IMG/VR virus record: IMGVR_UViG_2531839146_000005
Source: a virus
Lineage: Duplodnaviria > Heunggongvirae > Uroviricota > Caudoviricetes
DNA length: 6,508 nt
Direction: 5' to 3' (one strand)
Position numbers and translations under genes: made by a program. Positions 1 through 6,508 of the stretch are shown here, piece after piece. Every line of letters starts with the position of its first letter. Within the stretch, counting starts at the first letter, position 1. The notes beneath the pieces are model-generated. The model did no database searches, had not been told where the DNA came from, and saw only the letters and a program-made list of their open reading frames with translations.

Positions 1-248
1 TGGTGGCGATGTCTCTGTGGCATAACCATCCGAAGAAGACGCAGATGCCGTCCATGAATGAAGCCGTTAAACAGATTGAGCAGGAAGTGCTTACCACCTG
101 GCCCGCGGAGGCAATTTCTCATGCTGAAAACGTGGTGTACCGGCTGTCCGGTATGTATGAGTTTGTGGTGAATGATGCCCCTGAACAGGCAGAGGACGCC
201 GGGCCTGCAGAGCCTGTTTCTGCGGGAAAGTGTTCGACGGTGAGCTGA
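1..248 (+). CDS. G: Tail assembly chaperone G, 3' portion (5' end lies upstream of the window); frame-0 product ends at TGA 246-248
   Basis: ORF 3..248 translates to ...SLWHNHPKKTQMPSMNEAVKQIEQEVLTTWP...AGPAEPVSAGKCSTVS, which I recognise as the C-terminal part of lambda gpG. Sits immediately upstream of the T frame and tape measure gene, the conserved synteny. No start codon in the window (the track's leading M is a GTG read in-frame). Confidence 0.9.
   Translation, partial: VAMSLWHNHPKKTQMPSMNEAVKQIEQEVLTTWPAEAISHAENVVYRLSGMYEFVVNDAPEQAEDAGPAEPVSAGKCSTVS
224..230 (+). other. Programmed -1 ribosomal frameshift slippery heptamer G GGA AAG (G-T recoding site)
   Basis: Sequence gcGGGAAAGtg at 222-232. 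In the G frame the codons are GGA (225-227) and AAG (228-230). A -1 slip re-pairs to GGG AAA and continues at GTG (230-232) in the T frame. This is the same heptamer and position (about 6 codons before the G stop) as the known lambda G-T frameshift. Confidence 0.85.
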
Positions 249-664
249 GTTTTGCCCTGAAACTGGCGCGCGAGATGGGGCGACCCGACTGGCGTGCCAT
301 GCTTGCCGGGATGTCATCCACGGAGTATGCCGACTGGCACCGCTTTTACAGTACCCATTATTTTCATGATGTTCTGCTGGATATGCACTTTTCCGGGCTG
401 ACGTACACCGTGCTCAGCCTGTTTTTCAGCGATCCGGATATGCATCCGCTGGATTTCAGTCTGCTGAACCGGCGCGAGGCTGACGAAGAGCCTGAAGATG
501 ATGTGCTGATGCAGAAAGCGGCAGGGCTTGCCGGAGGTGTCCGCTTTGGCCCGGACGGGAATGAAGTTATCCCTACTTCCCCGGATGTGGCGGACATGAC
601 GGAGGATGACGTAATGCTGATGACAGTATCAGAAGGGATCGCAGGAGGAGTCCGGTATGGCTGA
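230..664 (+). CDS. T: Tail assembly protein T frame, expressed as the C-terminal part of the G-T fusion via -1 frameshift; no independent initiation expected
   Basis: Open frame 230..664 in the -1 frame relative to G, translating VFDGELSFALKLAREMGRPDWRAMLAGMSSTEYADWHRFYSTHYFHDVLLDMHF...EGIAGGVRYG, recognisable as lambda gpT. Stop TGA 662-664 overlaps the H start (ATGGCTGA). Confidence 0.88.
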   Translation: MFDGELSFALKLAREMGRPDWRAMLAGMSSTEYADWHRFYSTHYFHDVLLDMHFSGLTYTVLSLFFSDPDMHPLDFSLLNRREADEEPEDDVLMQKAAGLAGGVRFGPDGNEVIPTSPDVADMTEDDVMLMTVSEGIAGGVRYG

Positions 665-3236
665 ACCGGTAGGCGATCTGGTCGTTGATTTGAGTCTGGA
701 TGCGGCCAGATTTGACGAGCAGATGGCCAGAGTCAGGCGTCATTTTTCCGGTACGGAAAGTGATGCGAAAAAAACAGCGGCAGTCGTTGAACAGTCGCTG
801 AGCCGACAGGCGCTGGCTGCACAGAAAGCGGGGATTTCCGTCGGGCAGTATAAAGCCGCCATGCGTATGCTGCCTGCACAGTTCACCGACGTGGCCACGC
901 AGCTTGCAGGCGGGCAAAGTCCGTGGCTGATCCTGCTGCAACAGGGTGGTCAGGTTAAGGACTCCTTCGGCGGGATGATCCCCATGTTCAGGGGGCTTGC
1001 CGGTGCGATCACCCTGCCGATGGTGGGGGCCACCTCGCTGGCGGTGGCGACCGGTGCGCTGGCGTATGCCTGGTATCAGGGTAACTCAACCCTGTCCGAT
1101 TTCAACAAAACGCTGGTCCTTTCCGGCAATCAGGCGGGACTGACGGCAGATCGTATGCTGGTCCTGTCCAGAGCCGGGCAGGCGGCAGGGCTGACGTTTA
1201 ACCAGACCAGCGAGTCACTGACGGCGCTGGTGAATGCCGGTGTGCGTGGTGGTGAGCAGTTTGAGGCGATCAGCCAGAGTGTGGCGCGTTTCTCCTCTGC
1301 ATCCGGTGTGGAGGTGGACAAGGTCGCTGAAGCCTTCGGGAAGCTGACCACAGACCCGACGTCGGGGTTGACGGCGATGGCACGCCAGTTCCATAACGTG
1401 ACGGCGGAACAGATTGCGTATGTTGCTCAGTTGCAGCGTTCCGGCGATGAAGCCGGGGCATTGCAGGCGGCGAACGAGGCCGCAACGAAAGGGTTTGATG
1501 ACCAGACCCGACGCCTGAAAGAGAACATGGGCACGCTGGAGACCTGGGCAGACAGGACAGCACGGGCATTCAAATCCATGTGGGATTCGGTGCTGGATAT
1601 TGGTCGCCCGGACACTGCCCAGGGAATGCTGGAGAAAGCAGAAAAGGCTTTTGATGAGGCGGACAAAAAATGGCAGTGGTATCAGAGCCGGAGCCACCGG
1701 CGCGGTAAAACCTCAGCATTTCTTGCCAATCTCCGGGGAGCATGGGAGGACAGAGCGAATGCGCAACTTGGGCTTTCCGCCGCCACGTTGCAGGCCGATC
1801 TTGAAAAGGCCAGAGAGATGGCAGCAAAGGACTGGGCCGAGTCTGAGGCATCACGGCTGAAATATACCGAAGAGGCGCAGAAGGCTTACGAACGCCTGCA
1901 GACGCCGCTGGAGAAATATACCGCCCGTCAGGAAGAACTGAACAAGGCACTGAAAGACGGGAAAATCCTGCAGGCAGATTACAACACGCTGATGGCGGCG
2001 GCGAAAAAGGATTATGAAGCGACGCTGAAAAAGCCGAAACAGTCCGGCGTGAAGGTGTCTGCGGGCGATCGTCAGGAAGACAGTGCTCATGCTGCCCTGC
2101 TGACGCTTCAGGCAGAACTCCGGACGCTGGAGAAGCATGCCGGAGCGAATGAGAAAATCAGCCAGCAGCGCCGGGATTTGTGGAAGGCAGAAAGTCAGTT
2201 CGCGGTACTGGAGGAGGCGGCACAACGTCGCCAGCTGTCCGCACAGGAGAAATCCCTGCTGGCGCATAAAGATGAGACGCTGGAGTACAAACGCCAGCTG
2301 GCTGCACTTGGCGACAAGGTTACGTATCAGGAGCGCCTGAACGCGCTGGCGCAGCAGGCGGATAAATTCGCACAGCAGCAACGGGCAAAACGGGCCGCCA
2401 TTGATGCGAAAAGCCGGGGGCTGACTGACCGGCAGGCAGAACGGGAAGCCACGGAACAGCGCCTGAAGGAACAGTATGGCGATAATCCGCTGGCGCTGAA
2501 TAACGTCATGTCAGAGCAGAAAAAGACCTGGGCGGCTGAAGACCAGCTTCGCGGGAGCTGGATGGCAGGCCTGAAGTCCGGCTGGAGTGAGTGGGAAGAG
2601 AGCGCCACGGACAGTATGTCGCAGGTAAAAAGTGCAGCCACGCAGACCTTTGATGGTATTGCACAGAATATGGCGGCGATGCTGACCGGCAGTGAGCAGA
2701 ACTGGCGCAGCTTCACCCGTTCCGTGCTGTCCATGATGACAGAAATTCTGCTTAAGCAGGCAATGGTGGGGATTGTCGGGAGTATCGGCAGCGCCATTGG
2801 CGGGGCTGTTGGTGGCGGCGCATCCGCGTCAGGCGGTACAGCCATTCAGGCCGCTGCGGCGAAATTCCATTTTGCAACCGGAGGATTTACGGGAACCGGC
2901 GGCAAATATGAGCCAGCGGGGATTGTTCACCGTGGTGAGTTTGTCTTCACGAAGGAGGCAACCAGCCGGATTGGCGTGGGGAATCTTTACCGGCTGATGC
3001 GCGGCTATGCCACCGGCGGTTATGTCGGTACACCGGGCAGCATGGCAGACAGCCGGTCGCAGGCGTCCGGGACGTTTGAGCAGAATAACCATGTGGTGAT
3101 TAACAACGACGGCACGAACGGGCAGATAGGTCCGGCTGCTCTGAAGGCGGTGTATGACATGGCCCGCAAGGGTGCCCGTGATGAAATTCAGACACAGATG
3201 CGTGATGGTGGCCTGTTCTCCGGAGGTGGACGATGA
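657..3236 (+). CDS. H: Tail tape measure protein (tail length determinant), 859 aa
   Basis: Long ORF starting MAEPVGDLVVDLSLDAARFDEQMARVRRHF, matching the lambda gpH N-terminus. Shine-Dalgarno AGGAGGAG at 643-650, 8 nt before ATG 657. Large Ala/Gln/Arg/Glu/Lys-rich central region typical of coiled-coil tape measure proteins. Gly-rich hydrophobic segment near the C-terminus. Position after G/T matches the conserved order. Confidence 0.95.
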   Translation: MAEPVGDLVVDLSLDAARFDEQMARVRRHFSGTESDAKKTAAVVEQSLSRQALAAQKAGISVGQYKAAMRMLPAQFTDVATQLAGGQSPWLILLQQGGQVKDSFGGMIPMFRGLAGAITLPMVGATSLAVATGALAYAWYQGNSTLSDFNKTLVLSGNQAGLTADRMLVLSRAGQAAGLTFNQTSESLTALVNAGVRGGEQFEAISQSVARFSSASGVEVDKVAEAFGKLTTDPTSGLTAMARQFHNVTAEQIAYVAQLQRSGDEAGALQAANEAATKGFDDQTRRLKENMGTLETWADRTARAFKSMWDSVLDIGRPDTAQGMLEKAEKAFDEADKKWQWYQSRSHRRGKTSAFLANLRGAWEDRANAQLGLSAATLQADLEKAREMAAKDWAESEASRLKYTEEAQKAYERLQTPLEKYTARQEELNKALKDGKILQADYNTLMAAAKKDYEATLKKPKQSGVKVSAGDRQEDSAHAALLTLQAELRTLEKHAGANEKISQQRRDLWKAESQFAVLEEAAQRRQLSAQEKSLLAHKDETLEYKRQLAALGDKVTYQERLNALAQQADKFAQQQRAKRAAIDAKSRGLTDRQAEREATEQRLKEQYGDNPLALNNVMSEQKKTWAAEDQLRGSWMAGLKSGWSEWEESATDSMSQVKSAATQTFDGIAQNMAAMLTGSEQNWRSFTRSVLSMMTEILLKQAMVGIVGSIGSAIGGAVGGGASASGGTAIQAAAAKFHFATGGFTGTGGKYEPAGIVHRGEFVFTKEATSRIGVGNLYRLMRGYATGGYVGTPGSMADSRSQASGTFEQNNHVVINNDGTNGQIGPAALKAVYDMARKGARDEIQTQMRDGGLFSGGGR

Positions 3237-4265: not shown

Positions 4266-5009
4266 ATGACAGAGACAGAATCAGCGATTCTGGCGCACGC
4301 CCGGCGATGTGCGCCAGCGGAGTCGTGCGGCTTCGTGGTGAGAACGCCGGAGGGGGAAAGATATTTTCCCTGCGTAAATATCTCCGGTGAGCCGGAGGAT
4401 TATTTTCGGATGTCGCCGGAGGACTGGCTGCAGGCAGAAATGCAGGGTGAGATTGTGGCGCTGGTCCACAGTCATCCCGGTGGTCTGCCCTGGCTGAGTG
4501 AGGCTGACCGGCGGCTGCAGGTGCAGAGTGATTTGCCGTGGTGGCTGGTCTGCCGGGGGGCGATTCATAAGTTCCGCTGTGTGCCGCATCTCACCGGGCG
4601 GCGCTTTGAGCACGGGGTGACGGACTGTTACACGCTGTTCCGGGATGCTTATCATCTGGCGGGGATTGAGATGCCGAATTTTCATCGCGGGGATGACTGG
4701 TGGCGTCACGGCCAGAATCTCTATCTGGATAATCTGGAGGACACAGGGCTGTATCAGGTGCCGTTGTCATCAGCACAACCGGGCGATGTGCTGCTGTGCT
4801 GTTTTGGTTCATCGGTGCCGAATCATGCCGCCATTTACTGTGGTGACGGCGAGCTGCTGCACCATATTCCTGAACAACTGAGCAAACGAGAGAGGTATAC
4901 CGACAAATGGCAGCGACGCACACACTCCCTCTGGCGTCACCGGGCATGGCGCGCATCTGCCTTTACGGGGATTTACAACGATTTGGCCGCCGCATCGACC
5001 TTCGTGTGA
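4266..5009 (+). CDS. K: Tail assembly protein K, JAMM/MPN metallopeptidase domain plus NlpC/P60-like domain; 247 aa from ATG 4266 (alternative internal start at 4410 would give 199 aa)
   Basis: ORF MTETESAILAHARRCAPAESCGFVV...ALVHSHPGGLPWLSEAD...GVTDCYTLF...NHAAIYCG... JAMM motif H-x-H-x7-S-x2-D at residues 68-81 (nt 4467-4508). Upstream E-x-C-G (E19, nt 4320-4331). Candidate NlpC/P60 catalytic Cys121 (nt 4626-4628). ATG 4266 lies 5 nt after the L stop. Confidence 0.88.
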   Translation: MTETESAILAHARRCAPAESCGFVVRTPEGERYFPCVNISGEPEDYFRMSPEDWLQAEMQGEIVALVHSHPGGLPWLSEADRRLQVQSDLPWWLVCRGAIHKFRCVPHLTGRRFEHGVTDCYTLFRDAYHLAGIEMPNFHRGDDWWRHGQNLYLDNLEDTGLYQVPLSSAQPGDVLLCCFGSSVPNHAAIYCGDGELLHHIPEQLSKRERYTDKWQRRTHSLWRHRAWRASAFTGIYNDLAAASTFV

Positions 5010-5578
5010 AAACGGGGGCTGAAGCCATCCGGGCGCTGGCCACACAGCTCCCGGCGTTTCGTCAGAAACTGAGCGACGGCTGGTATCAGGTACGGATTTC
5101 CGGGCGGGACGTCAGCACGTCCGGATTGACGGCGCAGTTACATGAGGTTCTGCCTGACGGCGCTGTGATTCATATTGTTCCCAGAGTCGCCGGGGCCAAG
5201 TCAGGGGGCGTATTCCAGATTGTTCTGGGGGCTGCCGCCATTGCCGGATCATTCTTTACTGCCGGAGCCACCCTTGCAGCATGGGGGGCAGCCATTGGGG
5301 CCGGTGGTATGACCAGTATCCTGTTTTCTCTCGGTGCCAGTATGGTACTTGGTGGTGTGGCGCAGATGCTGGCACCGAAAGCCAGGACGCCCACGGCAGC
5401 AAGTACAGATAACGGCAAACAGAACACCTATTTCTCCTCACTGGATAACATGGTTGCCCAGGGCAATGTTCTGCCCGTTCTGTACGGTGAAATGCGCGTG
5501 GGGTCGCGGGTGGTCTCTCAGGAGATCAGCACGGCAGACGAAGGGGATGGTGGTCAGGTTGTGGTGATTGGTCGCTGA
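4907..5578 (+). CDS. I: Tail assembly protein I, 223 aa; N-terminal ubiquitin-like region ending in Gly-Gly, C-terminal Gly/Ala-rich hydrophobic region
   Basis: ORF MAATHTLPLASPGMARICLYGDLQRFGRRIDLRVKTGAEAIRALATQ..., matching lambda gpI length (223 aa) and sequence. Overlaps the 3' end of K by 103 nt in a different frame, as in lambda. GG at residues 100-101 (nt 5204-5209) followed by VFQIVLGAAAIAGSFFTAGATLAAWGAAIGAGG. Confidence 0.9.
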   Translation: MAATHTLPLASPGMARICLYGDLQRFGRRIDLRVKTGAEAIRALATQLPAFRQKLSDGWYQVRISGRDVSTSGLTAQLHEVLPDGAVIHIVPRVAGAKSGGVFQIVLGAAAIAGSFFTAGATLAAWGAAIGAGGMTSILFSLGASMVLGGVAQMLAPKARTPTAASTDNGKQNTYFSSLDNMVAQGNVLPVLYGEMRVGSRVVSQEISTADEGDGGQVVVIGR

Positions 5579-5595
5579 TGCAAAATGTTTTATGT

Positions 5596-5620
5596 GAAAC
5601 CGCCTCCGGGCGGTTTTATC
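5596..5620 (+). terminator. GC-rich hairpin followed by T-tract in the I-J intergenic region (putative weak intrinsic terminator or RNA stability element)
   Basis: gAAACCGCC (5596-5604), loop tccg (5605-5608), GGCGGTTTt (5609-5617): a perfect 8-bp inverted repeat (5597-5604 with 5609-5616) followed by tttatcgtttat. It sits between the I stop (5576-5578) and the J Shine-Dalgarno (GGAG 5627-5630). Confidence 0.4.
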
Positions 5621-5638
5621 GTTTATGGAGCATGACGA

Positions 5639-6508
5639 ATGGGTAAAGGCGGCAGTAAGGGGCATACCCCGCGCGAAGCGAAGGACAACCTGAAGTCCAC
5701 GCAGCTGCTGAGTGTGATCGATGCCATCAGCGAAGGGCCGGTTGAAGGTCCGGTGGATGGATTAAAAAGCGTGCTGCTGAACAGTACGCCGGTGCTGGAC
5801 AGTGAGGGGAATACCAATATATCCGGCGTCACGGTGGTGTTCCGGGCCGGTGAGCAGGAGCAGACACCGCCGGAGGGGTTTGAATCCTCCGGCTCCGAGA
5901 CGGTGCTGGGTACGGAAGTGAAATATGACACGCCGATCACCCGCACCATTACGTCTGCAAACATCGACCGTCTGCGCTTTACCTTCGGTGTACAGGCACT
6001 GGTGGAAACCACCTCAAAGGGTGACAGGAATCCGTCGGAAGTCCGTCTGCTGGTTCAGATACAACGTAACGGTGGCTGGGTGACGGAAAAAGACATCACC
6101 ATTAAGGGCAAAACCACCTCGCAGTATCTGGCCTCGGTGGTGGTGGATAACCTGCCGCCGCGCCCGTTTAATATCCGGATGCGCAGGATGACGCCGGACA
6201 GCACCACAGACCAGCTGCAGAACAAAACGCTCTGGTCGTCATACACCGAAATTATCGATGTGAAACAGTGCTACCCGAACACGGCACTGGTCGGCGTGCA
6301 GGTGGACTCGGAGCAGTTCGGCAGCCAGCAGGTGAGCCGTAATTATCATCTGCGCGGGCGTATTCTGCAGGTGCCGTCGAATTATAACCCGCAGACGCGG
6401 CAATACAGCGGTATCTGGGACGGAACGTTTAAACCGGCATACAGCAACAACATGGCCTGGTGTCTGTGGGATATGCTGACCCATCCACGCTACGGCATGG
6501 GGAAACGT
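5639..6508 (+). CDS. J: Tail tip / central tail fiber protein J, N-terminal 290 codons (continues past the window end)
   Basis: ATG 5639 with GGAG 8 nt upstream. Translation MGKGGSKGHTPREAKDNLKSTQLLSVIDAISEGPVEGPVDGLKSVLLNSTPVLDSEGNTNISGV... is open to the window end and matches the lambda gpJ N-terminus. Not in the ORF track because no stop codon is reached. Confidence 0.93.
   Translation, partial: MGKGGSKGHTPREAKDNLKSTQLLSVIDAISEGPVEGPVDGLKSVLLNSTPVLDSEGNTNISGVTVVFRAGEQEQTPPEGFESSGSETVLGTEVKYDTPITRTITSANIDRLRFTFGVQALVETTSKGDRNPSEVRLLVQIQRNGGWVTEKDITIKGKTTSQYLASVVVDNLPPRPFNIRMRRMTPDSTTDQLQNKTLWSSYTEIIDVKQCYPNTALVGVQVDSEQFGSQQVSRNYHLRGRILQVPSNYNPQTRQYSGIWDGTFKPAYSNNMAWCLWDMLTHPRYGMGKR

Follow-up and report, generated by a model that had tools for sequence, protein, structure and literature searches.

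A candidate intrinsic terminator between tail genes I and J of a lambda-like phage

In phage lambda, RNA polymerase loaded with the antiterminator Q reads through downstream terminators, and tR', next to the late promoter, is an experimentally defined regulatory terminator. REP-type hairpins, which lie between the cistrons of an operon (e.g., malE-malF), are known to stabilise the upstream message. The record of phage HK225 (NC_019717) carries a sequence-based annotation, 'rho-independent terminator', 18 nt before the J homolog. The hairpins that flank lom in lambda match the promoter-gene-terminator layout of 'moron' insertions (PMC3594210). In the EPEC prophage PP6, the Hfq-dependent small RNA PasB has been described (PMC8550237, table S6); in papers on PasB, we found no statement that it lies between I and J. 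The literature search returned no paper testing or naming an I-J terminator in lambda, and the papers on CRISPRi, the lysogeny transcriptome and Stx Term-seq say nothing about the I-J junction. The site is unannotated in both the lambda RefSeq and the PhiR26_1 record.

The DNA analysed here, called the window throughout, is a stretch of 6508 nt covering the tail-tip region of a lambda-like phage. Positions 5300-5900 are 100% identical to Escherichia phage PhiR26_1, the closest record, and ~93.5% identical to lambda. A stable hairpin followed by a T-rich tract occupies the gap between I and J. We propose, with somewhat better than even confidence, that this element is an intrinsic (Rho-independent) terminator-type signal on the + strand of a Q-antiterminated late operon; on its sequence features, it is most likely a terminator of moderate strength.

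Anatomy and rarity of the I-J hairpin

The genes and elements of the window that bear on this proposal are the following.

657-3236: gene H, from the ORF list, followed by M, L, K, I and the 5' part of J
4907-5578, + strand: tail assembly gene I, longest ORF (Pfam Lambda_tail_I, E = 4e-27; PhiR26_1 annotation)
5579-5638, + strand: I-J intergenic spacer, 60 nt
5594-5619 (5594-5604 / 5609-5619), + strand: extended 11-bp hairpin, with added G-U and U-A pairs
5597-5604, + strand: hairpin 5' arm AAACCGCC, from the inverted-repeat list, G-C core at 5600-5604
5605-5608, + strand: tetraloop TCCG, of UNCG type (TGCG, TCAG and TCTG in relatives)
5609-5616, + strand: hairpin 3' arm GGCGGTTT, from the inverted-repeat list, G-C core at 5609-5613
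5614-5626, + strand: T-rich tract TTTTATCGTTTAT, counted from the G-C core (tail score 3.81)
5627-5630, + strand: Shine-Dalgarno GGAG of J, with the ATG 8 nt downstream
5639-6508, + strand: 5' part of the tail tip / host specificity gene J, from ATG 5639 and continuing beyond the window

Gene I, whose annotated start in relatives corresponds to 5006, ends with the stop codon TGA at 5576-5578. Everywhere else in the window, neighbouring genes overlap or lie no more than 5 nt apart, which makes the 60-nt I-J gap the only sizeable one, as a preliminary description of this DNA had claimed. In the lambda h434 imm21 record, the same GGAG ahead of J carries a ribosome-binding-site annotation. At the other end of the window, the H ORF has 859 codons (657-3236) compared with 853 annotated in PhiR26_1 (31074-33635), and upstream of M the window coordinates are offset by 18 nt relative to that phage; either a difference of 18 nt at or close to H or simply a differently annotated start may account for this.

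The two arms of the hairpin are 100% complementary over 8 bp, five of them G-C pairs, around a 4-nt loop. The stem starts 18 nt past the I stop codon, in non-coding sequence, and the hairpin ends upstream of the J ribosome-binding site, giving the order G-C core, TTTTATCGTTTAT, GGAG and J ATG. The first T residues of the tract can also pair with AAA at 5597-5599. Folding yields a stable hairpin of -13.2 kcal/mol for the 8-bp stem and -16.9 kcal/mol for the 11-bp stem (z = -5.6 versus shuffles, with 0 of 200 shuffles folding as well); the core of five G-C pairs contributes -9.7 kcal/mol. The preliminary description had placed a perfect 8-bp inverted repeat with a 4-nt loop and a T-rich run at 5596-5620; every one of these elements is found, and the repeat was correctly bracketed. 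The U-tract is broken by other bases (UUUUAUCG) and is moderate, not strong. The - strand at the hairpin has no comparable T-tail.

Terminator-like sites were scored in the style of d'Aubenton-Carafa, from hairpin energy per length and a T-tail term. A single + strand site in the 6508 nt scores above zero, with its core at 5600-5613 and a score of 19.3, a relative measure only, the formula following d'Aubenton-Carafa 1990 and being run with modern energy parameters. Shuffling the window 200 times with dinucleotides preserved gives a mean of 0.01 such sites. Bare 8-bp inverted repeats are common enough, several appearing in the window's repeat list; it is the combination of hairpin and T-tail that is unusual. 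The score of 19.3 is moderate, certain other sites reaching 30-43, and because the U-tract is interrupted as well, the termination efficiency of the I-J hairpin may be low. A terminator acting on the - strand or in both directions was considered and rejected: no - strand site scores above zero in the whole window or in lambda 1-24000.

The two terminator predictors disagree. A second, built-in scan of the window leaves the I-J site unlisted and names 8 others, all intragenic, against 4.8 +/- 2.1 expected. Its longest-stem rule probably absorbs the T-run, so the omission reflects that rule and is no evidence against the I-J site, which stands out in the hairpin-plus-T-tail scorer. Over 5300-5900, the best Rfam 15 matches reach 12.9-19.2 bits against cut-offs of 40-55, corresponding to no curated RNA family, and a promoter scan gave no promoter-like match in the window's I-J gap. 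A 22-codon ORF (5577-5645) bridges I and J, its ATG overlapping the I stop (TGATG) and its TAA falling just inside J. Most lambda-like variants keep it open; it was rejected as a coding explanation because the variants include frameshifts and a premature stop, and most of their substitutions change the amino acid.

Conservation in close and diverged relatives

Phage records and IMG/VR contigs yielded 40 distinct I-J spacers of lambda-like type. The stem varies in 1 of its 16 columns, in one sequence variant, where a C to T change leaves a G-U pair in place; outside the stem, 22 of the 44 spacer columns vary, including 2 of 4 in the loop (Fisher p = 0.002 versus the stem). The 40 spacers are too similar for covariation to show. 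The viral contig scan supplied only J copies that are 99-100% identical, and it informs within-type variation, not depth. Three copies (L128, L129 and L130, from Shigella SFBU1023 and E. coli ECMA0423) were left out of the counts; they carry many single-base indels that break J and the hairpin, and look like error-prone assemblies or decayed prophages.

Two further observations concern these close relatives. Variants at window positions 5586 and 5632 (alignment columns 17 and 63), which flank the hairpin, occur in all four combinations, suggesting frequent recombination within or beside the conserved hairpin. In addition, lambda DNA at 96-98% identity appears in assemblies of unrelated organisms, including Shewanella, Pseudomonas, Streptomyces and Bacillota. 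These matches (L093-L113, L123, L125-L127, L136 and L142), some on contigs of ~48.4-48.5 kb, look like control or spike-in contamination.

A profile scan with the J N-terminus, taking one genome per species, extended the comparison to loci with J proteins 32-82% identical. Of 19 non-redundant diverged loci, 16 have a + strand terminator-like site immediately ahead of J that is either the only one in the locus or among its two best. The distance from hairpin to J start is mostly 17-27 nt, and at least nine different stem sequences are represented. A junction hairpin with a T-tract but an unrelated stem is present in Citrobacter, Budvicia, Limnobaculum, Serratia, Providencia, Phytobacter, Stx-type and T1-like loci, and hairpins of the HK225 type occur in Pseudescherichia, Phytobacter, Serratia and Providencia prophages. 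Representative elements are given below.

Limnobaculum: stem ACCTGC/GCAGGT
Budvicia: hairpin AACCCGC-TTCG-GCGGGTT
Enterobacteriaceae bacterium: stem AAACCTCAGC/GCTGAGGTTT
Serratia: stem GGTCGC/GCGACC
Providencia: stem GCGGC/GCCGC
Pseudescherichia: stem GCCACC/GGTGGC
Stx-type phages: stem CAGGCACCC/GGGTGCCTG, then TCGTTTTT

Because the diverged hairpins were found by a hairpin search, the counts of paired and covarying positions partly follow from how the set was assembled: the six loop-proximal pairs of 20 distinct elements are paired in 120 of 120 cells, with several pair types at each except the loop-closing C-G, and the 11 elements with 4-nt loops have 100% of cells paired, changes on both sides in 5 of 7 pairs and a covariation score reached by 0 of 500 shuffles. 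The MAFFT alignment was reduced from 13 diverse hairpins to 11, two being misaligned. The independent evidence is the presence at all of so rare a signal at the I-J junction. A near-invariant stem beside a variable spacer, together with substitute stems in which pairing and T-tract persist, indicates purifying selection on the hairpin and not drift. Comparison with relatives, named in the preliminary description as a check on the hairpin, comes out in its favour both among the 40 close spacers and, with other stem sequences, in most of the diverged loci.

The element is not universal. It is absent from Morganella IME1369_01 and Burkholderia PR2b, which both lack the gap, and from MagusPhagus, Stenotrophomonas CUB19 and three further loci (L115, L137 and L143); since some phages carry J without the gap or the hairpin, the element is dispensable in some contexts. 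The T1-like virulent phages pSf-2, ACG-M12 and Salmonella phage 36 have a hairpin and T6-T8 right after the I homolog, which the built-in scan also calls in two of them. Their terminator is followed by cTGTATAAT, gTGTAGAAT or aTGTACAAT (L148 ~1420-1445, L149 ~1417-1435 and L152 ~1410-1430). The shared motif TGnTAnAAT ahead of J looks like an extended -10 promoter; the built-in promoter scan of L148 and L152 does not call it, presumably since that scan requires a -35 match.

This T1-like arrangement, a terminator and then a promoter-like motif at the I-J junction, suggests an old unit boundary. The hairpin could accordingly be read as a relic, a terminator left behind by an ancestral transcription-unit boundary or a lost insert, neutral under Q and kept by descent and recombination. 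Its absence from some J phages and the recurrent insertion, into this gap, of cargo that brings or uses terminators agree with such an origin. A neutral leftover is nonetheless hard to reconcile with a stem that hardly changes while neighbouring spacer bases are free to vary, or with replacement stems that keep both pairing and T-tract, and we regard a relic as improbable.

Selection on the palindrome as DNA, in the form of a protein-binding site or a recombination linker at the edge of an exchangeable J module, was also weighed. The palindrome is perfect, and the flanking variants in all combinations suggest crossovers in or near it. Across lineages, however, the palindrome sequence is not conserved, only the pairing and a one-sided T-tract, and the element is asymmetric, with a T-run 3' only on the + strand and no - strand terminator score. 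A DNA-level role is therefore very hard to credit.

The position of the hairpin just ahead of J raises the question of translation. The minimum-energy fold of 5579-5645 pairs the GGAG, with a mean unpaired probability of the ribosome-binding region of 0.17 in the window and 0.27 in lambda. In principle, an outer helix (5585-5593 / 5625-5633) built onto the hairpin could keep the ribosome-binding site hidden, to be exposed by a ribosome completing I. A second version makes the hairpin and U-tract a ribosome standby or S1-binding platform; in many lineages, the U-tract ends 2-10 nt before the ribosome-binding site. The comparative data point away from both versions. The one informative pair of the outer helix is U-G in 15 cases, U-A in 11, C-G in 9 and unpaired in 5, close to independent assortment and equalled by shuffles. 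The unpaired probability of the ribosome-binding site ranges from 0.13 to 0.80 in diverged loci, so its pairing is not conserved, and 52-106 nt separate the hairpin from the J start in Stx-type, E. albertii and T1-like loci. The outer helix, predicted in the window, was consequently rejected as the main function, and the earlier suggestion that the structure modulates J translation found no backing; we give translation control a slim chance.

Cargo at the junction and the place of the hairpin

The I-J junction is a recurrent cargo site. The inserted genes and RNAs are as follows.

Fels-1, Citrobacter prophage and E. albertii prophage, - strand: Cu/Zn superoxide dismutase (SodC)
IMG/VR contig L050, 785-1093, + strand: lipoprotein-like ORF
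Stenotrophomonas CUB19, + strand: two HNH homing endonuclease genes
HK225: small ORF in the I-J junction
E. coli E2348/69 NC_011601 (L154), 962-1044, - strand: PasB, in EPEC prophage PP6
Coordinates of the remaining cargo listed here: L007 614-1138 (-), L120 1834-2364 (-), L115 ~213-760 (-), L147 927-1475 (+), L151 1144-1410 (+)

The Pfam domain Sod_Cu is confirmed for Fels-1 and Citrobacter, and the E. albertii gene is assigned by sequence motifs only. Rfam found nothing in the cargo-bearing I-J gaps. In PP6, PasB occupies the I-J gap on the strand opposite to the tail genes, with its own terminator abutting the I stop codon; a separate + strand hairpin (~1131-1152) stands ahead of gpJ. PasB was rejected as the identity of the window's hairpin: blastn-short matches the E2348/69 locus and fragments in L116 and L117, with no match in the window. 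By eye, a diverged PasB copy is seen in L008 at ~571-655.

Where cargo is present and a + strand hairpin is retained, the hairpin is the last element before J. The hairpin then adjoins J and lies hundreds of nt from the I stop, so it is not tied to the 3' end of I, and an insulating terminator appears to fit this position better than an element belonging to the end of I.

The same geometry bears on a role in RNA stability. With little or no termination, the hairpin could block 3'-to-5' exonucleases after a transcript cut and protect the upstream tail message, or it could stand as a 5' hairpin on the J message. It is stable, has a UNCG-type loop and borders a gene of 3.4 kb; genes E and J of lambda are likewise flanked by similar hairpins. 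A terminator would, moreover, be silent under Q antitermination, and another role could explain why the hairpin is retained. However, an exonuclease block needs no T-tract, and the T-tract is kept in every lineage despite replacement of the stem. With cargo present, the hairpin stays at J rather than at the end of I. M, L, K and I encode minor tail-tip and assembly proteins, and these upstream genes would be expected to need no extra message. Stabilisation as the main function is thus unlikely, although, by sequence, protection of a 3' end is inseparable from termination and may coexist with it.

The signal in its operon and among known systems

In PhiR26_1, the antiterminator gene Q (15043-15426) precedes the lysis, head and tail genes, all of which lie downstream on the same strand; the late promoter is unannotated in that record. 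The scorer applied to the window finds six + strand sites in lambda 1-24000 (NC_001416). Five of them coincide with the five late-operon gaps of at least 40 nt, namely D-E, E-FI, I-J, J-lom and lom-stf, and PhiR26_1 has the same set.

Lambda gap sites, + strand: 6101-6114, 7164-7179, 15466-15479, 18920-18935, 19613-19632
PhiR26_1 gap sites, + strand: 26633, 27696, 35999, 39474, 40149

The sixth lambda site lies inside gene C (4487-4502). The late-gap hairpins lie 17-29 nt before the next start codon. As each of the five gaps has such a site, the I-J hairpin is one of a family of gap-filling, terminator-like signals.

These data can be assembled into a model of how the candidate terminator would act. 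Polymerase without Q, originating from stray promoters, from inserted cargo genes or from read-through of the first late terminator in a lysogen, would pause on the U-tract; the hairpin would form in the exit channel, and the RNA would be released just before the J ribosome-binding site. During lytic growth, Q-carrying polymerase would ignore the signal and transcribe J, lom and the side-fibre genes on one long late transcript. The same hairpin would also shield the 3' end of any upstream RNA ending there. Among the functions raised in the preliminary description, which included a weak terminator read through under late-gene antitermination, message stabilisation and control of J translation, the terminator is best supported, by the anatomy of the element, the invariance of its stem, its recurrence at the junction, the HK225 annotation and the location of Q upstream; the translational reading fell away.

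A broader reading can be offered only tentatively. Selection may have preserved the I-J hairpin as an ancient transcription boundary of the siphovirus tail-tip module, one that temperate lambda-like and virulent T1-like phages have in common. In lambda-like phages, it would then act as an insulator making J and the downstream genes strictly Q-dependent, and it would provide a landing pad for cargo such as SodC, PasB, the lipoprotein-like gene and homing endonucleases. Where the hairpin is retained, cargo sits upstream of it, and cargo transcription in the lysogen would thus be kept out of J. If unmodified polymerase does stop there, the site would be one of several internal checkpoints that silence a late operon of more than 20 kb without Q, bearing on how tightly structural genes are silenced in lysogens. 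The comparison also marks the I-J junction as a repeated site of prophage cargo of benefit to the host, exemplified by superoxide dismutase and an Hfq-dependent small RNA. For annotators and phage engineers, it points to a defined, unannotated and putative regulatory site directly before the host-range gene J.

Measured against described systems, the I-J hairpin is an ordinary, unannotated instance of a textbook kind of element and opens no new question; what is mildly new is confined to the breadth of its conservation and its association with a cargo hot spot. REP-type hairpins resemble it in being stable and in lying between cistrons of one operon, but the I-J hairpin has no other copy in the window's inverted-repeat list, adjoins a T-tract and belongs to no curated RNA family. 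PasB shares with it the I-J gap of a lambda-like tail module and a terminal hairpin with a U-tract, yet PasB runs on the other strand, measures 83 nt and lies in a 240-nt gap. The other late-gap hairpins of lambda (D-E, E-FI, J-lom and lom-stf) have the same + strand layout of hairpin and T-tract with different sequences; I and J are core tail genes, unlike the moron-type lom. The likeness to lambda tR' and Q extends to the operon, the strand and the type of signal, and a phage of the window's type has Q upstream; tR' is experimentally defined and sits at the late promoter, whereas the I-J site lies ~19 kb further along and is a candidate.

A close parallel in layout comes from HK225. There, as in the window, a G-C stem-loop with a 4-nt loop and a T-tract separates the preceding tail gene from J on the late strand, near the J start. 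The HK225 stem (GCCACC/GGTGGC) is unrelated to AAACCGCC/GGCGGTTT, its T-tract is an uninterrupted T7 where the window has TTTTATCG, and an extra small ORF separates I from the terminator.
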